DNA from: Candidatus Levyibacteriota bacterium
GTDB lineage: Bacteria > Patescibacteriota > Microgenomatia > Levybacterales > UBA12049
Reading direction: 5' to 3'
Length of the DNA: 64,000 nucleotides
Assembly (NCBI GenBank): GCA_016182235.1
Contig: JACOXT010000003.1
Span: 451,488-515,487, forward strand
Numbering within the stretch: the stretch's first letter is position 1; each line of letters begins with the position of its first letter. The notes under the pieces are model-generated. The model did not search any database. It was not told the DNA's origin and saw only the letters and a list, made by a program, of their open reading frames with translations. Shown here one piece after another: positions 11,880 to 60,898 of this stretch. The translations under genes and the position numbers were made by a program.

Positions 11880-13033
11880 AAATTGGTATTGACGCAAGAC
11901 TTTGGAACGAAGGAGGGGTAGGAAGATACATAAGAAATCTAATTAAGCAAATTCAGCCTTTAGATAAAAGTAATCTTTATACTTTGTTTGTTTTGTCTAA
12001 AGACTATGAAAGTATTAAGTACGAAGTATCAAGTATTAAGGAGGAAAATTGGGAACTTATAAAGACAAATATTCGGTGGCATTCGATTGAGGAGCAGTTA
12101 AAGTTTGCTAACATTTTAAACAAAGAAGAATTAGATTTGGTGCATTTTCCCTATATTTCGGTGCCGTTGAATTATCAAAAGCCATTTATCATTACAATAC
12201 ACGATTTAATTCCATATCATTATCCTTCTTCAAATGCTTCCGCTCTCCCTTTCCCTATTTACTTCTTAAAATTATTGGCATATAAATTTGTGGTGAGAGC
12301 CGCAGCAAGAAAAGCGCAAAAAATTATCGCGCCCTCAAATTTTACAAAAAAGGAAATTGTAGAACATCTAAAAATTGATCCAAGAAAAGTAATAGTAACT
12401 TACGAAGGAGTAAATAGTAAAATTACAAATTCAAAATCTCAAATTCCAAAAAAATCCCAAAATACTAAATACAAAATACTAAATACAAAATACTTTTTAT
12501 ATGTAGGAAACGCGTTTCCGCATAAGAATCTTGAGGTATTGATAGAAGCTTTCAATCTTTTCCGTCAAGAGCATCCTGGTATTTTTCTTGTCTTTGTCGG
12601 CAAGGAGGATTTCTTCTACAGTCGATTAAAAAATGAGGTTTACAAGCGTAAAATTTCAGACGTAGTTTTTTTACATAATATAATTGATGGGCAATTAGTA
12701 AGTTTGTACAGAAGCGCAATTGCATTTGTTTCACCTTCTCTTATGGAAGGATTTGGTCTGCCGGTTCTTGAGGCAATGGTAAATAGATGTTTGGTTTTGG
12801 CATCGGATATTCCAACACATCGAGAAATTTGTGGCAAGGTTGCCTTATACTTTGATCCTAATAATGTTGGGGATCTAACTCAAAAACTAGAATCCATTCA
12901 CTCTAATGATATGTATTATTATAGTGAAAAAAAAAGGGGGTTTGATCGAGCGAAAGTGTTCTCTTGGGAAAAGATGGCAAGAGAAACTTTAAAAATATAT
13001 GAAAGTTGCGTTGGTTTACGACAGAGTGAATAA
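11876..13033 (+). CDS. GT4-family glycosyltransferase
   Basis: C-terminal EGFGLPVLEAM. Contains the AT-rich in-frame insertion at 12418-12493. Confidence 0.8.
   Translation: MKIGIDARLWNEGGVGRYIRNLIKQIQPLDKSNLYTLFVLSKDYESIKYEVSSIKEENWELIKTNIRWHSIEEQLKFANILNKEELDLVHFPYISVPLNYQKPFIITIHDLIPYHYPSSNASALPFPIYFLKLLAYKFVVRAAARKAQKIIAPSNFTKKEIVEHLKIDPRKVIVTYEGVNSKITNSKSQIPKKSQNTKYKILNTKYFLYVGNAFPHKNLEVLIEAFNLFRQEHPGIFLVFVGKEDFFYSRLKNEVYKRKISDVVFLHNIIDGQLVSLYRSAIAFVSPSLMEGFGLPVLEAMVNRCLVLASDIPTHREICGKVALYFDPNNVGDLTQKLESIHSNDMYYYSEKKRGFDRAKVFSWEKMARETLKIYESCVGLRQSE
12418..12493. repeat. AT-rich ~70-bp in-frame insertion (A/C/T heptamer-like tracts) in GT4, homologous to the murE copy at 29515-29585
   Basis: aaaattacaaattcaaaatctcaaattccaaaaaaatcccaaaat... 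encodes KITNSKSQIPKKSQNTKYKILNTKY. The murE copy is aaaattccaaactcaaaatctcaaattacaaataaatccaaaatt. Confidence 0.65.
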
Positions 13034-22610: not shown

Positions 22611-22895
22611 ATGAAGAAGTCGTCATTTGTTATACTGTTATTCATAATTACAATTGTCTCGCTATCCGTTGCGCAGGGAGTCGTATCAAATAAGCTTTCC
22701 ACAAAAGGAGTGATTCTGCATGAAATTGAGAAAAAAGTGTATGATTATAAAACCCAAAATAGTATTTTGTCTGAAGAAATTTTATACAACTCATCTCTCA
22801 CGAATTTAGCATCTAAAGCCGCAGAGTTAGGATTTGGTAAACTGAGAGAGCAATTTGTGCTAAATTCGGGGTCAAGTCTGGCAGTTAAGCCATGA
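22611..22895 (+). CDS. ftsL: cell division protein FtsL-like (small bitopic membrane protein)
   Basis: 94 aa with an N-terminal TM helix plus coiled-coil. Sits between rsmH and ftsI. Confidence 0.5.
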   Translation: MKKSSFVILLFIITIVSLSVAQGVVSNKLSTKGVILHEIEKKVYDYKTQNSILSEEILYNSSLTNLASKAAELGFGKLREQFVLNSGSSLAVKP

Positions 22896-22940
22896 TCCTT
22901 CGATTACGCTCAGGATCATACTGAGCATGTCGAATGTATG
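22892..22940 (+). promoter_or_regulatory. conserved hairpin-containing 5-prime leader element (copy 2) immediately upstream of the ftsI start codon
   Basis: ATGATCCTtcgattacgctcAGGATCATactgagcatgtcgaatgtATG. The stem and the 18-19-nt spacing to the ATG are both conserved. Confidence 0.45.
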
Positions 22941-28518: not shown

Positions 28519-29757
28519 ATGCTACAGAGAATTAAGAATATTTATCACCTTGGAAATGGCATTCTGGGTAATTTGCGGTTTGGGTTTCCATCACATAAGC
28601 TTACTGTAATAGGCGTTACCGGAACTGATGGTAAAACAACAACTACAAGTCTAATATACCATGTCCTTTCTACATCTGGACGAAATGCATCGATGATAAG
28701 CTCAGTTGGGGCAGTAATAGGAGGAAGAGAGTATGATGTGGGATTTCATGTTACAACTCCTTCTTCCTGGGCGCTTCAGAAGTTTATTAAAGAGGCAGAA
28801 AAGGGCTTTCTGGTTCTTGAGACGACGTCTCATGCCTTGGATCAATTTAGAGTTTGGGGAATAAAATTTGACATTGGAGTTTTAACCAATATCACCCATG
28901 AACACCTAGATTACCACAAGACTTACCATAAATACGTTGAGGCAAAAGCAAAGCTTCTTGAAATGAGCCGAGTAGCGATTGTGAATAGAGACGACAAATC
29001 ATACCCGTTAATAAATTCGAAATTCGCTCGCCTCGCTGCGAAGCGGGAAATTCGAAATTCGAAATTAATTACCTATGGGATGAAAGATAATGCGGATTTA
29101 AATCCAAAAAAATTTCCATTTAAAACAAATATGATTGGAGAGTTCAATATTTACAACAGTCTTGCCGCAATAGCGGTATGTAGAGCTCTTGGTATTCCAG
29201 ATGAAGATATTAGAACGGGTTTAAAGTCATTTAAGCCTCCGATTGGCAGAGAAGAAGTAGTTTATAAGAAAGATTTTACCGTTATGATTGATTTTGCACA
29301 TACACCTAACGCCTTTGAGGAAATTCTGAGTTCAATTAAACCGAGTATAAAAGGCAGACTTATTCACGTATTTGGGTCGGCGGGACTTAGAGACAATACC
29401 AAAAGACCAATTATGGGGAGAGTCTCATCAAAATATGCGGATATTATTGTTTTGACCTCTGAAGATCCAAGATCGGAATCGGTTGAGAAGATTTCAGACG
29501 AGATAGAATCAGGAATAAAAATTCCAAACTCAAAATCTCAAATTACAAATAAATCCAAAATTCAAATATATAAAATTCCAAATCGACAAGAAGCAATTCA
29601 ATTTGCTATTAAGATTGCTAGAAAAGGAGATTTGGTCTTGACAACGGGGAAATCGCACGAAAAATCAATGAATTATGGACATGGAGAAGTTCCGTGGGAC
29701 GAGTACAGCGCTGTACGAAAAGCATTAAAAGGTTTGGGATTAAAGATTAAGGATTAA
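28519..29757 (+). CDS. murE: UDP-N-acetylmuramoyl-tripeptide ligase (MurE-type Mur ligase)
   Basis: P-loop VIGVTGTDGKTTT and a C-terminus GDLVLTTGKSHEKSMNYG resembling MurE GKGHE. Start set at ATG 28519 (MLQRIKN). Carries two in-frame mini-insertions (29014-29066 and 29515-29585). Confidence 0.75.
   Translation: MLQRIKNIYHLGNGILGNLRFGFPSHKLTVIGVTGTDGKTTTTSLIYHVLSTSGRNASMISSVGAVIGGREYDVGFHVTTPSSWALQKFIKEAEKGFLVLETTSHALDQFRVWGIKFDIGVLTNITHEHLDYHKTYHKYVEAKAKLLEMSRVAIVNRDDKSYPLINSKFARLAAKREIRNSKLITYGMKDNADLNPKKFPFKTNMIGEFNIYNSLAAIAVCRALGIPDEDIRTGLKSFKPPIGREEVVYKKDFTVMIDFAHTPNAFEEILSSIKPSIKGRLIHVFGSAGLRDNTKRPIMGRVSSKYADIIVLTSEDPRSESVEKISDEIESGIKIPNSKSQITNKSKIQIYKIPNRQEAIQFAIKIARKGDLVLTTGKSHEKSMNYGHGEVPWDEYSAVRKALKGLGLKIKD
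29014..29066. repeat. mini-insertion in murE: GAAATTC heptamer duplications flanking GC palindrome GCTCGCCTCGCTGCGAAGCGGG
   Basis: aaattcGAAATTC[gctcgcctcgctgcgaagcggg]GAAATTCGAAATTCGAAATT. In frame. Confidence 0.7.
29515..29585. repeat. AT-rich in-frame insertion in murE, homologous (~85% over ~50 nt, same reading frame) to 12418-12493
   Basis: Encodes KIPNSKSQITNKSKIQIYKIPNRQ. The tail tccaaaattcaaatata matches tccgaaattcaaatatc of the copy at 2905-2972. Confidence 0.65.
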
Positions 29758-34449: not shown

Positions 34450-36210
34450 ATGTGCGGTATATTCGGCTATGTTGGCAAGAAATCTAGTGCTGCCAAAATT
34501 GTTTTTGACGGACTGAAACTTCTTGAGTATAGAGGGTATGATTCATGGGGAATCGCAATAAAAATCAAAAATAAGTTTATTATTGAAAAACACGTTGGTA
34601 AAATTGGAGATGCAAAGATTAATCTTCCGGAAGGTGATTTGGGAATAGGGCATACTCGCTGGGCGACTCACGGAGGAGTAACGGTTGCAAATGCTCATCC
34701 TCATCTGGATTGCACAAAGTCCATAACTGTTGTTCATAACGGCATTGTTGAGAATTTTCAGGAAATAAAAGATAAGCTTGTAAAATTAGGACACAAGTTT
34801 GTTTCAGAAACTGATACAGAAGTCATCCCTCATCTTATTGAAGAAAACTTGAAACATATTGGTTTTGCATCTTCTGTTCGTAACTCCTTTAATAAATTAA
34901 GAGGTCTAAACGCTATTGTGGTTGCGAATGCCGTTTCAAAAGAAATCGTAGCGGCCAAGAACGGTTCGCCTCTTATTGCGGGTATAGGAAGTGGGGAGTT
35001 TCTTGTCTCGTCCGATATTGTTGGAATTGTGCCTCATACAAGAAATGTAATTTTTCTAAAAGATAATGAAATGGTGATCTTGGGTAAAGAAATTCAGCTT
35101 ATTTCTCTTCCAACCGGAAAAAAACTTTCTATAAGACCCGAAAAAATAGATTGGAAATTTGAAAATACATCAAAAGGCAAGTTCCAGGACTTTATGATTA
35201 AGGAAATCCATGAACAGCCGCTTATCGTACGAAATATCGCCAAAAATTATTCGGAGAGTTTGAAAAAACTTGCAAATTATGTTCAAAATGCCAAAGGCAC
35301 ATTTTTTATTGGAGCTGGTACCGCGTTTCATGCCGGCCTTTCCGGAACTTATTTTTTTTCCAAAATCGCCAAAAAACACGTAAATACTACAGTTGCCTCT
35401 GAATTTAATTATTTGGAGGATTTTTTGACAAAAGAAAGCCTTGTTATTGTTCTTTCCCAAAGTGGTGAGACAATTGATGTTGTTGAGCCTGTAAATAGGG
35501 CAAAAAGTAAAAAAAGTAAAATCGTTGCGATTACAAATTCCTTGGGTTCAACACTTTATAGGATGGCAGATTATAATGTTTTGTTAAACGCCGGTCCGGA
35601 AAAGGCAGTCGCCTCAACAAAAGCCTATATCGCAAAACTTTCGGTTTTATTGATGCTGACATTTGCCTTAATTAACAAAGAAGAAAGAGCAAAAGAAATT
35701 CTTCTTAGGACTGCAAAGGAGATGGAAAGGCTTTTGGAAAGCAAACAAGTTTTGGAAATTAAAAAAATTGCCAAGTTTTTGTCAAAAACTAGAAATATTT
35801 ACGCACTTGGCCGCGGCGCGTCTTATCCTTCAGCCCTTGAGGCTGCTTTGAAAATAAAAGAAGTGACCTATATTCCAACAGAAGGATTTCCCGGAGGAGA
35901 GCTAAAGCACGGCACAATTGCACTGATAGGGCATGGAACGCCGGTTATAGTATTTGCTCCTCAGGATGAGACTTATGAATCTATTATTTCAAATGCTATT
36001 GAAATCAAATCAAGAGGCGGAGTTATAATTGGAATTTCCGATAGACAATCTTCAGCTTTTGATTATTTTATTTCAGTCAAGGACGTGGAAGAAGGTTCAT
36101 ATTTAGCGCAAGTTGTAGTTGCTCAGCTTTTGGCTTATTATATGGCAGTTGAATTGAAGCTTGATCCTGATATGCCCCGCAACCTCGCAAAATCAGTTAC
36201 CGTAAAATGA
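34450..36210 (+). CDS. glmS: glutamine--fructose-6-phosphate aminotransferase
   Basis: Begins MCGIFGY (N-terminal nucleophile Cys2) and has two SIS domains. 586 aa. Confidence 0.9.
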   Translation: MCGIFGYVGKKSSAAKIVFDGLKLLEYRGYDSWGIAIKIKNKFIIEKHVGKIGDAKINLPEGDLGIGHTRWATHGGVTVANAHPHLDCTKSITVVHNGIVENFQEIKDKLVKLGHKFVSETDTEVIPHLIEENLKHIGFASSVRNSFNKLRGLNAIVVANAVSKEIVAAKNGSPLIAGIGSGEFLVSSDIVGIVPHTRNVIFLKDNEMVILGKEIQLISLPTGKKLSIRPEKIDWKFENTSKGKFQDFMIKEIHEQPLIVRNIAKNYSESLKKLANYVQNAKGTFFIGAGTAFHAGLSGTYFFSKIAKKHVNTTVASEFNYLEDFLTKESLVIVLSQSGETIDVVEPVNRAKSKKSKIVAITNSLGSTLYRMADYNVLLNAGPEKAVASTKAYIAKLSVLLMLTFALINKEERAKEILLRTAKEMERLLESKQVLEIKKIAKFLSKTRNIYALGRGASYPSALEAALKIKEVTYIPTEGFPGGELKHGTIALIGHGTPVIVFAPQDETYESIISNAIEIKSRGGVIIGISDRQSSAFDYFISVKDVEEGSYLAQVVVAQLLAYYMAVELKLDPDMPRNLAKSVTVK

Positions 36211-36299
36211 CTTTGCCCTGAGTGAATAGATGCGAATCGAAGGACAAAAAGCGTGACTGTAAAGTAAATCCTCAGAAAAAGTGGTAAAATCTGCTTGTT

Positions 36300-37127
36300 A
36301 TGAGTAGAGTGGAAACTTTTCCCAGGCCAACACAAGTTGAAATCCCTAAAGTAAAGAACATGCCTCTTTCTGATATTGTTCCTGAACCGGAGAGGCGATC
36401 CTCACCTCCCGGATTAATAACTGTTGCGGGCCATGAACTCAACCATGCTCTGGTCGCACTGGCTCATGGGATACCAATTGTTAGTCTTTCCGTAATGCCG
36501 AAAGGCGACTCACTAGGCAGAACAGTTATCGGAGGGTGGGTTTCAACGGAAACGATGAAGGTAATCGCGGCAGGCGGAGGGGTTGAGACGCATGATGGAA
36601 GCGCGGAGGGCTTTGGAAGCGATAAATACAAGGTAGATGTCATGCATCATTTTCATGGCGGGCATTCCTGGGACTCGGCAAGAAATCAAGCCGCGAGTAT
36701 CGTTTCCAGATTTTCAAATAGAATTAGGGAAAGAGCTGCGGAAATTATAGCTTATTTGGGGACAGTAGCAGGATCACTTATTGGAGACATAATGCGTCGT
36801 GCGCAAATGGAACTTGATCAAGAAAAAGGAATCGAAACAGAGCAATTAATATTAGTTTCAAACCCTCAGCAGGAATATAAATATAAAACAATTATTGACG
36901 AGCTTCCGGGCAATGTGCAAAGAATTAGATATGTAGTGGTAGGAGTAGTTAAAAAAGAAGAATATCTTTGCGGAATTTGCCAGGGAATAAACAGCCATGA
37001 AGAAGATTGCCCAAACGCAAAACTCAAAGAAAATTCGGATGAATCTAAATCTTCCCCAAAACCGCTAACAAATGAAGGGATAATTATCTCTTTCCCAGTC
37101 CGCAAGCCTCTAAAACTTGTTGCATGA
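36300..37127 (+). CDS. putative Zn-metallopeptidase-like protein (HExxH) with C-terminal Cys-rich zinc-ribbon-like motif
   Basis: AGHELNHALVALAHG (HExxH) and CGICQGINSHEEDCPN. GC content of about 48% against about 33% in the flanks. Confidence 0.45.
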   Translation: MSRVETFPRPTQVEIPKVKNMPLSDIVPEPERRSSPPGLITVAGHELNHALVALAHGIPIVSLSVMPKGDSLGRTVIGGWVSTETMKVIAAGGGVETHDGSAEGFGSDKYKVDVMHHFHGGHSWDSARNQAASIVSRFSNRIRERAAEIIAYLGTVAGSLIGDIMRRAQMELDQEKGIETEQLILVSNPQQEYKYKTIIDELPGNVQRIRYVVVGVVKKEEYLCGICQGINSHEEDCPNAKLKENSDESKSSPKPLTNEGIIISFPVRKPLKLVA

Positions 37128-37291: not shown

Positions 37292-40024
37292 ATGAATAAA
37301 CTGCAAAAAGAAGCAAAAGAAAAAATTAAAGAACTTATCGGTAAGTATGAGTTAGCTGTTGTGGCGGGGCAAATTAAGAAGTACACGGAAGAAGAGACAA
37401 AAAATTCTTTTATAAAACCTCTTTTTGAAGCTCTAGGATGGGATTTTTCAGAAAAAAACGAAGTCTCTGCGGAAGAAAATATTATATCTTCAGGCAGAGT
37501 TGATTACGGATTTTATATTAACGGTCGAGCCAAATTTTATCTTGAAGCAAAAAAGTTAAAAGCGGATTTAAATTCGGAAGAATTTGCCCGCCAAGCAATT
37601 AGATACGGCTTCAATAAGGGCGTTACTTGGGCTGTTTTAACTGATTTCGAAAGCATCAAGGTCTTTAATTCCCAAGCTCTTTCAAATTATTTAGGGGATA
37701 AACTGTATTTTGAAATAAATTATTCGGAATATTTAGAGTGTTTGGATCAATTATGGCTCTTGTCAAAAGAAGCATTTGAAACTGACCTAATTGATAAGGA
37801 GGCTGAGAAAGCAGGTAAGAAATTACAAAAAGTTCCTGTTACTGAGCTTCTCTATAAAGATTTAAATGAATGCAGAAAAATATTGACAGAATATTTGGGT
37901 AAATGGAATCCGAAAGTGACAAAAGATCTTTTAGATGAAGGTGTACAAAAATTACTAGATAGATTAATTTTTATCAGAGTTGCCGAAGATAGAAAAATTG
38001 AACAGAATATTTTAGTTCCTTTAATTAATCAGTGGAGAGCTTTTGCTGGTAAGAATAAACCCGAGCTGTATGAATCCATGGCTGACAAATTTAGAGAGCT
38101 TGATGATATTTACAATTCCAATCTATTTACTCCGCATCCTTTTGAGAAATGGGAGGACGATGGCGGAGCGCTAGAGAAAGTCATAAAAATTCTACACGGA
38201 AAATCAGGTTATTATGAATATGACTTTAGTGTTATGCCGGCTGATGTTTTAGGAAGTGTCTATGAAAATTACTTGGGACATAAATTATCTCAGTCTAAAA
38301 AAGGACTGACGTTGGATAAAACAGCAAATAAAAGAAAAGAACAGGGAATTTACTATACTCCAACTTTTATAGTTGATTATATTGTCAGAAATGCTCTAAA
38401 ACCAGTTTTGGATAAGTGCAGAAGCATTAATGATTTGAAGAAAATTAAAGTTTTGGACCCTGCTTGCGGTTCGGGATCTTTTCTCATAAAAGCGTTGGAA
38501 GTTATAGCGGAAAAGTACAAGGATTTTAACGCTCCAATAAATGAGTTTACGAAAATACAAATAATTTTAGAGAATTTATATGGAGTTGATTTGGATATGC
38601 AAGCGGTAGAAATTGCAAGACTTAATCTACTGGTTAATACTCTCGAGGAAAAAGGCAAACTGCCCTCTTTGGACAAAAATATAAAGAATGGCAATTCGTT
38701 GATTTCAGGAACAGACGAAGAACTGGAAAAATATTTCGACAAAAACTTCAGAGACAAAAAACCTTTTAATTGGCAAGAAGAATTTCCGGAAGTCTTCAAG
38801 CAAGGTGGATTTGATGTAATAATAGGCAATCCTCCATACATTTTTGCTCGGGGTGGTAATTTTGATGACAATGAAAAAAAATATTATTATGACAACTATA
38901 AACTTCAAAAATATCAGATTAATACGTACCTTCTTTTTATAGAACGCACATACAACTTACTTAAACAGAACGGGAGATTAGGGTTCATAGTTCCTAACAA
39001 CTGGTTAACGATAAGCACTTTCAAGAATCTTAGAGAATTTATCCTGAAGGAGATGGGGGGAGTAAGAATAATTAATACTGTTGAAGCAGTATTTTCTCAG
39101 GCAAGTGTTGATACTTGCATTCTAATATTTGAAAAGTCAAAACCAACAGAAATTCAACTTGGAGAGCTAAGGGAAAATCAAGCACCATTAATGAAAAAAT
39201 ACAAGCCAGAAGATTTTTATGCGAACGATTTTATAATAAATATAACAAAAATATCTAGCCTTAAAGGCAATGCTATATTGAACAAAATAGATAGCAATTC
39301 CCTTTCTCTTAGTGACATAGCAAGAGTGTCTTCTGGGTTAAAAGCTTATCAGGAAGGCAAAGGTAAGCCGATTCAAACAAAAGAGATTAAAGAATCAAGA
39401 AAATATCATTCTCAGAAAAGACTAGATAAAACTTATTTTCCATATTTACAAGGTAGCGATGTCAAACGATATTTTCTTGACTGGTCTAAGGAATACTTAA
39501 GTTATGGTGATTGGTTAGCCGAACCAAGAAAATCTGTTCCCTTCAACGGCCATAGAATCTTAGTTCGGCAAATACCTTCTTCTTTACCTTACTGCATAAA
39601 TGCTGCATATACAGAAGATTACTATTTTAACGATATTAACAGTATGGTTATTTTCGATTCGATTAGAGGATACGATCTTAGATACATTCTGGGTATTATA
39701 AATACTAAGTTAATTTCCTATTGGTTTGCAAATGTTTTTGATAAATTTCAACGTAAAATATTCCCACAATTTAAGGTAAATGAGCTAGCTAAATTTCCGA
39801 TTTATAAGGCAGAAAAAAATAAACAAAAAGCAATTATTGAATTGGTTAATAAGATAATGCAGCTTAAGAAAGATTTAAAAAAATTAGATGCAAATTCCAA
39901 TAAATGGGTCAAGATAAAAGAAGAAATAGAAAAAACGGACAAAAAAATTGATGAAGAAGTCTATAAACTCTATGGTCTCACGCAGGAAGAAATTAGAGTT
40001 GTGGAAGATAATAACGAGAACTAA
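37292..40024 (+). CDS. Type IIG/IIL restriction-modification enzyme (MmeI-like): N-terminal PD-(D/E)xK nuclease, gamma-class N6-adenine methyltransferase, C-terminal TRD
   Basis: N-terminal ...GRVDYGF..FYLEAKK (D...E-x-K), methyltransferase motif I VLDPACGSGSFL, motif IV IGNPPY. 910 aa, close to the MmeI family size. Confidence 0.75.
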   Translation: MNKLQKEAKEKIKELIGKYELAVVAGQIKKYTEEETKNSFIKPLFEALGWDFSEKNEVSAEENIISSGRVDYGFYINGRAKFYLEAKKLKADLNSEEFARQAIRYGFNKGVTWAVLTDFESIKVFNSQALSNYLGDKLYFEINYSEYLECLDQLWLLSKEAFETDLIDKEAEKAGKKLQKVPVTELLYKDLNECRKILTEYLGKWNPKVTKDLLDEGVQKLLDRLIFIRVAEDRKIEQNILVPLINQWRAFAGKNKPELYESMADKFRELDDIYNSNLFTPHPFEKWEDDGGALEKVIKILHGKSGYYEYDFSVMPADVLGSVYENYLGHKLSQSKKGLTLDKTANKRKEQGIYYTPTFIVDYIVRNALKPVLDKCRSINDLKKIKVLDPACGSGSFLIKALEVIAEKYKDFNAPINEFTKIQIILENLYGVDLDMQAVEIARLNLLVNTLEEKGKLPSLDKNIKNGNSLISGTDEELEKYFDKNFRDKKPFNWQEEFPEVFKQGGFDVIIGNPPYIFARGGNFDDNEKKYYYDNYKLQKYQINTYLLFIERTYNLLKQNGRLGFIVPNNWLTISTFKNLREFILKEMGGVRIINTVEAVFSQASVDTCILIFEKSKPTEIQLGELRENQAPLMKKYKPEDFYANDFIINITKISSLKGNAILNKIDSNSLSLSDIARVSSGLKAYQEGKGKPIQTKEIKESRKYHSQKRLDKTYFPYLQGSDVKRYFLDWSKEYLSYGDWLAEPRKSVPFNGHRILVRQIPSSLPYCINAAYTEDYYFNDINSMVIFDSIRGYDLRYILGIINTKLISYWFANVFDKFQRKIFPQFKVNELAKFPIYKAEKNKQKAIIELVNKIMQLKKDLKKLDANSNKWVKIKEEIEKTDKKIDEEVYKLYGLTQEEIRVVEDNNEN

Positions 40025-40045
40025 CTGGCCGATGAAAATTTTCAT

Positions 40046-41128
40046 TTGAATATGGCATACCCACTTATCATTTTAGGAGCAGGTGCATCCTTTGACTTTC
40101 AAGATCTTTTAGATTATGAGGGAAGCAATGACATTATTAAGCTACTTGAATGGCGTCCTCCACTTGTAAATAAAATGTTTGATGTTGCGCGACTTGGAAG
40201 AATAATTGGAAACTATGATGATGTTAAACCACTTGCCTCAACAGTAAATAATCTTGTTAAAAATAAAAATATCAACTTTGATTTTGAAAAGCATTTGTCA
40301 CAAATAGAAAGCAAGTATCCTGAAAATAGCTATAAACAGATAATGGCCTTAAGGTTTTACCTTGCAGAACTTTTTAGTAAAATTTCTTACTACTATTTTA
40401 GACATACAAATAACCATCTTCATTTAATTAACGAGGTCAATAACAGAGGAGGAAATGCCTGTGTTGTAAACTTTAATTATGATACTTTATTTGAAAAGAA
40501 TATTAAAACTATCGGTAATAATGATAATATCGATGCCTATATTTCAGGAAACATCAAGATAATTAAAATACACGGTGCTCATAATTGGCGTTACAGCCCC
40601 AAAGCAGCAATTGCTAAAACTGGTGTTTATGATTTTTTTATATCTGGAGGGCGGAGCTTCTATGAAGAATATAAAGATCATGAAGTTGATCCAACAACTA
40701 CAAAAATTCTTGACTACAGTAAAGAAAATTTTGACCTAAACGAGTATAGGAAAAGTAGGGAAGATAAAACCCTCTCTATCAACACATGGCTATACTACTT
40801 ACCTGCAATAGCAATACCTATAGGGACAAAAGGAAATCACGTATGCCCAAAAAAACACATAAACACTTTAATTGAACAGTTAAAGATGGTTGACAGGATT
40901 CTTGTTATTGGATGGCGCGTTCAGGATGAGTACCTTTTATCACTATTAAAAGCACACTTACAAAATGGTGTTAAGTTAACTGTCGTATCTAGTGGCAATA
41001 CCTCAGCAAAAGAATACATAGAAAAGTTTAAGGCAATAATTCAAATAAAAATTCTAGACATGACTTTTCCTAATAATGGATATACAAATTTTATGATTAA
41101 CGGAGGGATTGAACGATTTTTATCATAA
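40046..41128 (+). CDS. SIR2_2-like (Thoeris ThsA/DSR-type SIR2) domain protein, putative NAD+-consuming defense effector
   Basis: LIILGAGASFDF (GAGxS), VVNFNYDTLFE (NYD motif) and IKIHGAHNW (HG motif). Confidence 0.6.
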   Translation: MNMAYPLIILGAGASFDFQDLLDYEGSNDIIKLLEWRPPLVNKMFDVARLGRIIGNYDDVKPLASTVNNLVKNKNINFDFEKHLSQIESKYPENSYKQIMALRFYLAELFSKISYYYFRHTNNHLHLINEVNNRGGNACVVNFNYDTLFEKNIKTIGNNDNIDAYISGNIKIIKIHGAHNWRYSPKAAIAKTGVYDFFISGGRSFYEEYKDHEVDPTTTKILDYSKENFDLNEYRKSREDKTLSINTWLYYLPAIAIPIGTKGNHVCPKKHINTLIEQLKMVDRILVIGWRVQDEYLLSLLKAHLQNGVKLTVVSSGNTSAKEYIEKFKAIIQIKILDMTFPNNGYTNFMINGGIERFLS

Positions 41129-41264
41129 CTCATGAAATTTGACCAACCGGTAAAAAATTATGAGGAGATATAAAACTAAATTGTTCGATATTGCAACCCA
41201 GACAGAACGAAAATTTACATGATAAAATCTCAAGAGATACTTGTGGAGATATTTAAAAAATAAT

Positions 41265-41420
41265 ATGGGTAAAAGTAAAAAAATTATTGTAAAAGGAAGC
41301 AAAATCGGTATCATCTTACATATTGGGGATAATGATTTTATCTCTCTAACCGATATGGCAAAATATAAAACTTACTGGTTTGGGGACTGGTTTGGGGACG
41401 GTCCTCGGAGGTGTTGTTAA
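41265..41420 (+). CDS. 51-aa ORF resembling a KilA-N/Bro-N-like N-terminal fragment (possible mobile-element remnant)
   Basis: MGKSKKIIVKGSKIGIILHIGDNDFISLTDMAKYK... The 3-prime end overlaps the TTTGGGGAC repeat motif. The assignment is weak. Confidence 0.2.
   Translation: MGKSKKIIVKGSKIGIILHIGDNDFISLTDMAKYKTYWFGDWFGDGPRRCC
41378..41410. repeat. GGTTTGGGGAC x2 + GGTCCTCGGAG motif (copy 1 of 3)
   Basis: ggtttggggactggtttggggacggtcctcggag. Confidence 0.6.
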
Positions 41421-41547
41421 GACACTCCAAAACAAACGCTGTTCTTGGAGCACCCACAACTCACCCTTAAATACTTGAGAATATTGGCATGTTATCGATT
41501 ATCTATTTCTTTTACTATCTCGAGCATGAAGGAGTAGATGTCTATTT

Positions 41548-42198
41548 CTATTGTTCAATTGCTAAAACCTGAAGGTGACTTTCGTGTTGTTCCAGAACCC
41601 CGCCATATGTCTGAACATATATGGATACAGTATGGTTTCCGGCAGATACAGGGAATACTCCGTTTACCGCTAAAGGAACTGCGGCATTTGCCGTAGTCAT
41701 AGTCGTTTGGTTGAACACTGCTTGATCAATATCATCAATATAAATATGGTAGAGGTGCTGAAATCCTCCGACTGTATTTCTGGTATCAACGTCGTAGTTT
41801 ACCCATAGAAGGCAATTTTCCGGGCAATTGGCTGTAATCTCATCAGGCGTTTTTACACTGTGTGGGTGTGTTATAGAAGTGCTAAAGAAAGATCCCCTTC
41901 TGGACCATATTCCAAAAACTATTTTATTTGATAAATTCTTGTTTTCAATTTCTTCAATTTTTGCAGACATTGTCGCATCATTAGTCTTGAGATCCTCTAT
42001 ATCGTCTTCATTTTGACTGACCCTGTTACTTAGGTCGTCGATGTCTTTTGACAAATTTGAGATAGCATCGGATATGAGTTGTTCAACTTGTACTATTGTT
42101 GCGAAAATGGGATTATTTACAGGTGCCGCTTTTACTAACTGGGGAAAAGCTAGGATGCCAGCAAGGAAAAGAAGCAGGATTGTTCTTTTAACTACCAT
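41548..42198 (-). CDS. secreted coiled-coil protein with C-terminal beta-rich domain (hypothetical)
   Basis: Signal peptide MVVKRTILLLFLAGILAFPQLVKA, then an acidic coiled-coil (DDLSNRVSQNEDDIEDLK), then a C-terminal globular domain. Flanked on both sides by the GGGGAYGGTCCT motif. Confidence 0.6.
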   Translation of the reverse strand: MVVKRTILLLFLAGILAFPQLVKAAPVNNPIFATIVQVEQLISDAISNLSKDIDDLSNRVSQNEDDIEDLKTNDATMSAKIEEIENKNLSNKIVFGIWSRRGSFFSTSITHPHSVKTPDEITANCPENCLLWVNYDVDTRNTVGGFQHLYHIYIDDIDQAVFNQTTMTTANAAVPLAVNGVFPVSAGNHTVSIYVQTYGGVLEQHESHLQVLAIEQ

Positions 42199-42240
42199 AA
42201 TTAAGTTGTATTGTAAGAATATTAAATCTATTTGTCAATC

Positions 42241-42260
42241 GTTTGGGGATGGTCCTGAGA
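42241..42260. repeat. GTTTGGGGATGGTCCTGAGA motif (copy 2 of 3), 43 nt upstream of the minus-strand secreted-protein gene
   Basis: gtttggggatggtcctgaga. Confidence 0.6.
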
Positions 42261-42449
42261 TATATTGTTGTAGTAAGCTGAAAGTGAAACATTTTGATCC
42301 TTCGGCCAGCTCAGGACAAGTATGTAGGCATCAATTCAAATGTTAATTATTTTGCCTTGAGAAGATTTTAAGGGTTAGAAACAAGAACTATGTTAAAAAG
42401 TATTTAAACTTTAATTTTTTCTTAAAAAGCTTTAAGATAGTAAGATTGC

Positions 42450-45006: not shown

Positions 45007-46143
45007 ATGAAAGTTGTAGTAATAGGAGGCCATTTATCTCCAGCGTTATCCGTAATCGAAGCGCTGCCAAAAGAGGTAAGTATATTATTTGTTGGAAGAA
45101 AATATTCTTTTGAGGGAGATAAGTCAAAATCTTTGGAATACGAGACCATTAATTCTCTTAAGTTTCCTTTTGCTGAGATTACTACAGCAAGGTGGCAAAG
45201 AAAGTTTACAAGACACACTATTAATTCGCTCTTTAAATTTCCTATTGGAGTTATTCAGTCGTTATTTATTTTATTAAGATTTAAGCCAGATGTTGTTGTT
45301 GGATTTGGAGGGTATGTGTCTCTGCCAGTTGCTATATCTTCTTTTATCCTAAGAGTTCCCGTTGTAATTCACGAGCAGACTTTGGAGGCAGGTTTTTCAA
45401 ATAGAATAATTTCGGTATGGGCTTCTAAGATATGTATATCATGGGAGTCATCACGCTCATTTTTTCCAAAAGAAAAAACGGTATTGACAGGAAACCCGAT
45501 ACGGAAGTTCGAAGTTCCCGCTTCGCAGAGAGGCGAGCGAAGTATGAAGTATGAAGTTGATAAGAAGGTTCCTACAATTTATATAACCGGTGGAAGTTCG
45601 GGATCGCATTTTATCAACAAATTAGTCGAAGGTTGTATTGGGGAACTGCTGAGAAAATTCAACATAATCCATCAGATTGGAGAGTCAAAATTTGGCGATT
45701 TTGAACGCTTAGTAAAGCTTCGTGAGACATTTTCTTTTGATCAACGCAAAAGATATATTTTAAAAAAATTTGTTAAACCGTCCCAAGTTGCCTCAATTTT
45801 AAAATATTGCGATTTAGCTATATCACGTTCGGGTATAAATACAATAACAGAACTTATTTATTTTGAAAAACCAGCTATTCTAATACCCCTCCCATTTTCT
45901 CAAAATAACGAACAATTGAAAAACGCAAGATTTTTGGAGACGTTCAAATTAGGAAAAGTATTGTCTCAAAACGAAGCTGACTCAAGAAGCTTATCTCAAA
46001 TGGTAGACTTAATATTTGATAATATAAAAGAGCATAAGTTAAATGAGAGCGAATCAGCGAAGAGGCAAATAGAAAATGCGGCTCAAAATATAGTTAAGAT
46101 TGTTGAATATGTCGGTGAAACAAAGAAAGTCCCGAAATTATAG
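45007..46143 (+). CDS. murG: undecaprenyldiphospho-muramoylpentapeptide beta-N-acetylglucosaminyltransferase
   Basis: N-terminal VIGGHLSPALSV and a GT28 C-terminal domain. Carries the GC-palindrome insertion at 45504-45558. Confidence 0.8.
   Translation: MKVVVIGGHLSPALSVIEALPKEVSILFVGRKYSFEGDKSKSLEYETINSLKFPFAEITTARWQRKFTRHTINSLFKFPIGVIQSLFILLRFKPDVVVGFGGYVSLPVAISSFILRVPVVIHEQTLEAGFSNRIISVWASKICISWESSRSFFPKEKTVLTGNPIRKFEVPASQRGERSMKYEVDKKVPTIYITGGSSGSHFINKLVEGCIGELLRKFNIIHQIGESKFGDFERLVKLRETFSFDQRKRYILKKFVKPSQVASILKYCDLAISRSGINTITELIYFEKPAILIPLPFSQNNEQLKNARFLETFKLGKVLSQNEADSRSLSQMVDLIFDNIKEHKLNESESAKRQIENAAQNIVKIVEYVGETKKVPKL
45504..45558. repeat. mini-insertion in murG: GAAGTTC/GAAGTAT heptamer duplications flanking GC palindrome CCGCTTCGCAGAGAGGCGAGC (reverse orientation of the murE core)
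   Basis: GAAGTTCGAAGTTC[ccgcttcgcagagaggcgagc]GAAGTATGAAGTATGAAGTT. In frame. Confidence 0.7.
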
Positions 46144-60651: not shown

Positions 60652-60693
60652 TGGGGACCATTTTGGGGACCATTTTGGGGATGGTCCTCAGAG
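60652..60693. repeat. GGGGACCATTTT x2 + GGGGATGGTCCTCAGAG motif (copy 3 of 3), 57 nt upstream of the minus-strand DmpA-family gene
   Basis: tggggaccattttggggaccattttggggatggtcctcagag. GGACCAT and ATGGTCC can pair as a 7-bp hairpin. Confidence 0.6.
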
Positions 60694-60898
60694 CGATTGA
60701 TTTAACAATCCAGACTAATCATAGATTTGAGATATAACTCCACTTTGATAAAATTAGCCGATTGGAATAATTGTCAACAATTTGGCTTTGATTTTATGAA
60801 TAATATTAAATGTTTTGAAACATTTAATCTAATTCATAATTTCTCATATTTTATTTTATTGAATAGCATGGTAGAATCTAAGGCGTTGAAAATTAACA

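Follow-up and report, generated by a model that had tools for sequence, protein, structure and literature searches.

Elements of the IS200/IS605 family have no terminal inverted repeats (TIRs), and the hairpins at their ends lie in the same orientation. The Correia/NEMIS elements of Neisseria are promoter-carrying miniature inverted-repeat transposable elements (MITEs) that derive from DDE-type insertion sequences and show fixed target duplications. A further type of system has been described around genes resembling those of REP-associated tyrosine transposases (RAYTs; REP, repetitive extragenic palindromic sequence) which, in the portions of the article considered here, are reported to be flanked by long TIRs instead of GTAG REPs, the TIRs overlapping the gene or lying at a fixed short distance from its ends, and have been designated 'TIRYT' genes within 'TIRtrons' (Di Nocera, De Gregorio and Rocco, 2013; PMC3733652). 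According to the same portions of that article, some of these TIRs share GGGGWSAS, TIR families are moderately abundant as singles, dimers and groups, the hosts listed are Proteobacteria, Acidobacteria and others, and Correia/NEMIS elements are classed as MITEs. Here we have analyzed a short box, beginning with TTTGGGGAY, that is repeated in a 64,000-nt stretch (hereafter, the window) from a Candidatus Levyibacteriota bacterium (assembly GCA_016182235.1, contig JACOXT010000003.1, positions 451,488 to 515,487). A first-pass annotation had noted three boxes, two of them on either side of a gene for a secreted protein, and had proposed that they could be a transcription-factor operator, a small structured RNA or a terminator-antiterminator module or, as the alternative, the ends of a decayed mobile element. 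The results presented below make it very probable that the boxes are the outer 19 nt of a dispersed module of ~57 nt, two inverted copies of which flank a RAYT/TIRYT-type Y1 transposase gene in Microgenomates, and that the copies in the window are solo members of this family. The box is thus selfish-DNA debris of a known kind and not a regulator of the secreted-protein gene.

All three boxes could be confirmed in the window, each of them on the + strand. Their coordinates had to be corrected by 1-2 nt in copy 1, whose string ggTTTGGGGACtggTTTGGGGACGGTCCTCGGAg spans 41377-41410 (start previously given as 41378), and copy 3, which spans 60652-60691 (end previously given as 60693), while those of copy 2 (42241-42260) were exact. 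Copy 1 lies between an ORF (open reading frame) fragment resembling KilA-N and the gene for the secreted protein of 216 aa (41548-42198, minus strand), on the 3' side of the latter. Copy 2 is in the divergent region between this gene, whose start (42198) is 42-43 nt away, and the Zincin_1-MraY-FtsW-MurG genes, and copy 3 is in the divergent region between a gene assigned by Pfam to the S58/DmpA peptidases, with its start (60595) at 57 nt, and a GT4 glycosyltransferase gene. The string TTTGGGGAY is found nine times in the window, against 1.96 expected, a number reached in none of 100 shuffles; four other exact matches are located within ORFs and show no further similarity to the boxes. The 17-mer TTGGGGAYGGTCCTSRG, with up to 3 mismatches, occurs exactly three times (0.27 expected). 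Similarity among the boxes, detected as repeat family D6, extends beyond them to ~57 nt, the box being the first 19 nt, or outer tip, of a module with sharp ends. A profile of the whole module revealed no fourth, degenerate copy in the window, so that its density is 3 copies per 64 kb. The coordinates of the modules and of other features mentioned below are given in Table 1.

To define the extent of the family, public genome and metagenome collections were scanned with the 19-mer TTTGGGGAYGGTCCTSRGA. In the genomes it matched 31 loci (loci are designated here by L and a number), near a rough chance estimate of ~35 for a collection of that size; around 16 of them came from Levybacteria, Gottesman-, Giovannonibacteria and similar metagenome-assembled genomes (MAGs) of low GC content, and these have a much longer stretch in common. 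The same longer stretch was found in most of the 81 metagenome loci, which are mainly groundwater contigs of 33-44% GC. A scan of a viral collection yielded just two matches, both within coding sequence and unrelated, and a literature search with the sequence string retrieved nothing other than primers for the hepatitis delta virus ribozyme. Altogether, at least 69 distinct module copies are present in public low-GC Microgenomates contigs (Levy-, Davies- and Curtissbacteria): 51 with an exact core, and 18 variant-core copies recovered from the same loci by means of a profile built on the former. In the gap-free alignment of these 69 copies, information is high in columns 1 to ~56 and flat both before them, up to position 0, and after them. 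The leading TTT is free to vary among the variant copies, and the 11-mer GGGACGGTCCT is invariant or nearly so. In L115/L116, the sequence of copy 1 aligns to profile positions 1-56 (E=2e-13). The first-pass annotation had regarded the existence of three copies alone, with no positional bias relative to genes, as a result that would speak against its proposals; there are indeed three copies in the window, at no fixed distance from gene starts, but the family is abundant in related genomes. Many copies are found 30-200 nt from a contig end, and the short-read (Logan) contigs of the window strain itself end at copies 1 and 2. Since this is typical of multicopy repeats, the module can be considered one, and it fragments metagenome assemblies of the candidate phyla radiation (CPR) at predictable sites.

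The modules adopt several arrangements. Solo copies fit intergenic gaps of 80-100 nt. Short head-to-head doublets of 149, 149, 149, 158, 163, 173 and 282 nt were found, with unrelated middles and arms that are only ~70% alike. The three doublets of exactly 149 nt (L009, L031 and L083; 33-nt middle) are independent of each other and their middles have no sequence in common, and this identical length suggests a constraint on spacing. Distant pairs occur in direct, inverted and divergent arrangements; in L007, for example, two direct copies are ~880 nt apart with small genes between them. In five related contigs a module directly follows the stop codon of glmS, and it is absent at the orthologous site of the window (36210-36300). 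The copy at this site is old and conserved across species, because its core is kept while other module positions differ among the five contigs. With respect to the origin of the sequences, an identical 75-nt segment of module plus flank is present at L007 (3027-3101) and L019 (1656-1730), which belong to MAGs of a single groundwater project with different phylum labels (Levyibacteriota and Giovannonibacteria); this suggests that a contig was binned twice or that transfer was very recent. Six records with the Microgenomates module (L013, L015, L022, L026, L031 and L121) bear the title 'uncultured Gammaproteobacteria', yet they are MAG contigs of ~40% GC, and the transposase of one of these MAGs, CAYUJR01, is named 'Candidatus Microgenomates bacterium' in nr; those titles are probably wrong.

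Four convergent pairs of modules, 757-775 nt apart (L064, L085, L105 and L110), each enclose a single ORF of ~220 aa beginning with MPRGPRFAF..AFYHVFNRG. These ORFs match the Pfam family PF01797 (Y1_Tnp, IS200-like Y1 transposase) with E~1e-12. When the Protein Data Bank was searched with a profile made from the four sequences, the sole transposase match was 4ER8, TnpA-REP of E. coli (E=7.6e-4), which was not retrieved with a single transposase sequence. In the alignment with 4ER8, the HUH motif H60-F61-H62 corresponds to H59-M60-H61 and Y119, within YIYxNPVK, to the catalytic Y115; H60-F61-H62 and Y119 are invariant among the aligned transposases. A protein search gave 2888 clusters of homologues at E<=1e-5, and the best 120 of the 2888 are all of ~219 aa and at least 70% identical, those with a name being assigned to Levy-, Davies- or Curtissbacteria or to 'Microgenomates'. 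In three additional homologues, taken from MAGs of Daviesbacteria, Curtissbacteria and 'Microgenomates' and inspected with 10-kb flanks, a + module ends just before the start codon, and a - module overlaps the stop codon. Inverted modules therefore flank the seven intact genes considered (L064, L085, L105, L110, L117, L119 and L121). Full unit and solo modules coexist in MAG CAYUJR01 (L121, and L013 and L026, respectively), and fragments of the transposase gene adjoin modules in L093, L082 (the 282-nt doublet) and L028/L106. The first four intact units examined are non-syntenic and have unrelated gene neighbours, which argues for some mobility of the unit as a whole. One unit (L119/L120, 9945-10702) is placed inside the rpoBC-S12-S7-EF-G-EF-Tu-S10 cluster of a Curtissbacteria contig, where it occupies the opposite strand between the genes for S7 and EF-G. 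An integron attC site was considered before the Y1 gene was found, and was rejected in the absence of a GTTRRRY core, arrays or an integrase; a DNA uptake sequence was likewise set aside, given the low density of copies and their association with a transposase.

The outer edge of the module shows an additional feature. Thirty of the 69 modules have, within 34 nt upstream, a match of at least 7 out of 9 positions to TTTGGGGAC (16 of them perfect), as opposed to 3 of 69 control windows. These partial tip copies nearly always end in ...GGGGAC and are followed by a spacer of 2-5 nt, a few being longer (L058, L093); the spacer is constant within a locus and different between loci. By their sequence, the tip copies are local duplications at the outer edge of the module, broken in the middle of GGAC-G-GTCC, and they suggest a position at which DNA is cut and rejoined, putatively GGGGAC/GG. 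A resemblance to telomere-like TTTTGGGG was dismissed, since locus-specific spacers indicate local duplications and not templated additions. The GGACCAT/ATGGTCC inverted repeat that the first-pass annotation attributed to the boxes does exist in copy 3; it arises, however, from the tandem duplication of the tip and is not common to the three copies.

The module also seems to carry a promoter, with TTGnyA in columns 24-29 and, after a gap of 17 nt, cATAgT in columns 47-52; conservation ends at the would-be transcription start. In six of the seven transposase-proximal modules the hexamers are promoter-like, with TTGACA (TTGGCA in one case) and a -10 element in which positions 2 and 6 are A and T, respectively. 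The start codon of the transposase is at module column 57-61, that is, at the predicted transcription start, and since no ribosome-binding site is found in between, a leaderless mRNA is likely, for which the embedded TTGACA-17 nt-cATAgT would be the promoter. Promoters dependent on sigma-54 or on extracytoplasmic function sigma factors were ruled out for the core by inspection, as the spacing is unfit. None of the window copies passes a test at the hexamer positions, even a lenient one, and, because of this degradation, they probably have little effect on their neighbours; neither the Zincin_1-MraY-FtsW-MurG genes nor the GT4 gene would be expected to be driven by them. The combination of an embedded promoter and a leaderless start nevertheless offers a testable example of a promoter sequence on a dispersed repeat.

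Based on these data we propose that two inverted modules and a single gene of ~220 aa encoding an IS200-like Y1 (HUH) enzyme make up a unit of 757-775 bp. By analogy with TnpA-REP and the IS200/IS605 enzymes, the transposase would recognise the invariant GGGACGGTCCT, cutting and joining single-stranded DNA there, and would spread modules in trans. The break may take place at GGGGAC/GG, where the tip duplicates end, and the promoter within the module would drive the transposase as a leaderless mRNA. With its invariant 11-mer, its sharp ends and tip duplications pointing to one break position, the family constitutes a clean substrate for the study of DNA recognition by a non-REP relative of RAYTs.

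As far as can be judged from sequence and from the portions of PMC3733652 considered, the present family fits the TIRYT/TIRtron description. The 57-nt inverted modules, unrelated to GTAG REPs, adjoin the start codon and overlap the 3' end of the gene, as long TIRs, and the family is dispersed, here as solos and as convergent doublets of 149-282 nt. The outer motif GGGGACGG agrees with GGGGWSAS, as quoted in those portions, at 7 of 8 positions, position 7 being G and not A; this comparison is with the motif alone and not with TIR sequences. Differences lie in the occurrence in CPR bacteria, the tip duplications and the embedded promoter; the last two, which do not appear in the portions of PMC3733652 considered, may be new details. 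No paper connecting RAYT or REPIN with CPR or Patescibacteria was retrieved by a full-text literature search, and the data presented here place RAYT/TIRYT-type transposase-and-repeat systems in the very small, streamlined genomes of Microgenomates. The REP/REPIN-RAYT systems (Bertels and Rainey, 2011, PMC3116915; Messing et al., 2012, PMC3479197; Bertels et al., 2017, PMC5581495) are similar in several respects: a Y1/HUH enzyme, in this case with HUH and Tyr residues aligning to E. coli TnpA-REP; a gene between inverted repeats; and repeats that are extragenic, are found singly or as inverted doublets, and are retained at orthologous sites in different species. The flanking repeat is also over-represented in extragenic DNA of the same genome, as illustrated by the unit and solos of CAYUJR01 and the three copies in the window. 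However, the module has 57 nt versus the 20-40 nt of a REP palindrome and lacks the 5' GTAG tag and a demonstrable hairpin, its density is lower and the arms of its doublets are less alike. On its reverse strand, CGTC, the other tag known from REPs, is found inside GGACCGTCCCC and not at the foot of a hairpin. RAYT genes are typically single-copy and vertically inherited; here, the non-syntenic surroundings of the first four units speak for some mobility.

Like IS200, IS608 and ISDra2, the unit encodes a member of the PF01797 superfamily; its ~760 bp are similar to the length of IS200, the enzyme gene fills the element, and its sequence-specific end is probably cleaved, by analogy, beside a short conserved motif. 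Unlike IS200/IS605 elements, it has 57-nt inverted repeats as its ends, and the only transposase matched among known structures is TnpA-REP, and not the TnpA of IS608 or ISDra2. As for Correia/NEMIS elements, the likeness resides in the presence of short intergenic inverted-repeat elements (100-300 bp) that can place promoter-like hexamers beside genes; the enzyme is here a Y1 transposase, though, and most module copies are single arms.

Several observations weigh against our interpretation. The best NCBIfam model for the transposase, NF047646 (REP-associated tyrosine transposase), gives 71.4 bits, below its curated cut-off of 80. No transposase gene exists in the 64-kb window, nor any remnant near the copies or between copies 1 and 2, so that activity in this genome is hypothetical. 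The module is not a canonical REP, as it is not a palindrome, has no GTAG tag, shows no covariation for any hairpin and has an ordinary folding energy as single-stranded DNA. Cleavage, excision and recent insertion are putative, and the copy at the glmS site is old. The orientation of solo copies with respect to the dominant gene strand (15:7, p=0.13) is not significant. Finally, the identical 19-mer is also present in palindromic doublets on contigs of 70-76% GC, with no transposase on the few kb examined.

Two alternatives also start from a mobile element. Solo boxes could be what is left of full 760-bp units after internal or one-sided deletion, with no transposition in trans. The decayed gene fragments beside the modules of L093, L082 and L028/L106 are what would be expected in such a case, as is the apparent mobility of the whole unit deduced from the four intact units first found. 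We consider this unlikely, though not far-fetched: there is no transposase remnant near any of the window copies, random deletion fits badly with three independent doublets of exactly 149 nt and unrelated middles, and solo copies fit in very small intergenic gaps. The other alternative, already raised by the first-pass annotation, is that the secreted-protein gene was brought to its site by an element or cassette, now decayed, whose ends are copies 1 and 2. That annotation was right about a mobile origin, the box being the tip of the terminal inverted repeat of a Y1 unit, but wrong in regarding these copies as a bracketing pair. The gene is in a variable island, where its neighbours include a KilA-N-like fragment, truncated at copy 1, and a gene for type IIG restriction-modification, and L007 also has small genes between two direct copies. 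Nevertheless, copies 1 and 2 are direct while the ends of the known unit are inverted, and distant pairs occur in all arrangements, as expected for independent insertions. The secreted protein is identical to HYT07_02775, and its homologues, with 53-60% identity, are encoded in variable islands beside restriction-modification, LexA-like, Bro-N and antitoxin genes; no module was found within 5 kb of them in three other contig contexts. A cassette is thus barely credible. Because the copies are direct, have no transposase remnant between them, and homologues elsewhere lack the module, the flanking of the secreted-protein gene is incidental and corresponds to two independent solo copies in a variable region.

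The readings in terms of gene expression fare no better. An operator defining a regulon, with the module as a regulated promoter, would be in accordance with the near-palindromic core (GGGGAC-G-GTCCTC), with extra half-sites about one helical turn apart, with the location of the core just upstream of -35/-10-like hexamers, and with copies 2 and 3 being 208 and 225 nt upstream of + strand genes. This is highly improbable, given that the copies appear in every intergenic context, many of them pointing into the 3' end of a convergent gene, adjoining its stop on the downstream side, or sitting between convergent genes, and have no constant position relative to gene starts. Moreover, the 57 nt are conserved as one block, including spacer and flanking columns, as in a copied element and unlike independent sites; the neighbouring genes are functionally unrelated; the promoter hexamers are degraded in the three window copies; and the box is linked to the transposase gene in seven of seven cases. 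We regard as next to negligible the probability that the module is transcribed and functions as RNA, whether as a structured RNA, as a terminator or as a terminator-antiterminator switch. In favour of such a role, a co-directional gene ends 16-90 nt before approximately 28 of the 62 copies, the consensus shows self-complementarity (81-83% of cells paired versus 30-60% with slid partners), and a simple terminator scan flags copies 1 and 3, with matches that depend on G-T pairs and 3-nt loops. Yet in around 15 copies the upstream neighbour is a divergent and not a co-directional gene, no U-tract follows the module, and Rfam gave nothing relevant for it either at the gathering threshold or at E<=1. 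Three candidate structures (a core hairpin, columns 1-8/12-19; an internal hairpin, 22-27/32-37; and a long-range closure, 1-5/37-41) showed no covariation above that of shuffled columns, the observed values being reached by 130-357 of 500 shuffles, and folding energies of the window copies are ordinary on both strands as single-stranded DNA (z from -0.5 to +1.0). Identifying the box as part of a transposase-associated repeat removes a false lead: it marks no regulon of secreted proteins or peptidases, and it defines no cassette.

Table 1. Module copies and other features located in the window.
Feature	Position	Strand	Remarks
Partial tip copy TTTGGGGAC and 3-nt spacer TGG	41379..41390	+	Repeats the first 9 nt of copy 1 in tandem
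Module copy 1, solo: core TTTGGGGACGGTCCTCGGA (41391-41409) and ~38 nt	41391..41448	+	
Module copy 2, solo: core TTTGGGGATGGTCCTGAGA (42242-42260) and ~38 nt	42242..42299	+	Profile E=2e-12
Two tandem partial tip copies, GGGGAC-CAT and TTTGGGGAC-CAT	60653..60673	+	Ahead of copy 3
Module copy 3, solo: core TTTGGGGATGGTCCTCAGA (60674-60692) and ~38 nt	60674..60731	+	
Type IIG restriction-modification gene	37292-40024		PADLOC 1.9e-117; Pfam Eco57I, N6_Mtase, TaqI_C
360-aa gene	40046-41128		Weak SIR2 matches, E=1e-4
Short ORF running into the box (ending in …AKYKTYWFGDWFGDGPRRCC and stop)	41265-41420		First ~40 residues like the start of KilA-N, Pfam E=0.086, below cut-off
Hairpin copies of the second repeat family	22893-22919; 36211-36250; 42294-42321	-; +; -	Also in L018 and L093
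45-nt repeat pair built on TTCGAAATTCGC...GCGAAGCGGGAAATTCGAA	29016-29060 and 45504-45548		87% complementary
AAATTC/AAAATnC-rich 66-nt stretches	2903-2968; 12419-12498; 29518-29583		

The high-GC doublets mentioned above were found in two samples (Ga0214473 and Ga0326597), on metagenome contigs L055, L073, L080, L081, L087, L090, L091, L092, L096, L098 and L114. In them the exact 19-mer TTTGGGGACGGTCCTCGGA is inside nearly perfect palindromes of ~96 nt with the layout GTTGAA-core-TTCAACTTGC...GCAAGTTGAA-core'-TTCAAC, which are often nested and in some cases in tandem. A genome contig, L021, has a related core followed by a ACTTGCGTAGCGCAAG hairpin. The shared 19-mer may be a conserved recognition motif of a transposase clade, or may reflect transfer between organisms. 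A broader scenario, very unlikely in our opinion, is that dispersed modules have ceased to be mere debris and form a genome-wide regulatory or architectural network in a streamlined CPR genome, in which the Y1 enzyme or a host factor binds GGGACGGTCCT at dozens of intergenic sites with portable promoters, or that the core came to be common to the high-GC contigs through exchange of elements between a CPR episymbiont and its high-GC host, and not through an old constraint on a transposase clade.

The variable island directly upstream of copy 1 covers 37292-41420, and on reading the window sequence the rest of the KilA-N gene was not seen past copy 2. A second family of small repeats, with the hairpin (T)TGryCCT-GAGC...CGA-AGGAyCA(A), is also represented in the window, where CCTGAG-N2-26-GAAGGA occurs 3 times versus 0.11 expected. 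One of its copies directly follows box copy 2, and the same pairing is found in L018. The final ~21 nt of glmS are present on both sides of the copy at 36211 (36187-36210 and 36244-36267), as if an insertion had either duplicated the gene end or restored it, and the arrangement is the same in L093. Some of the other dispersed repeats of the window appear to sit within long ORFs.

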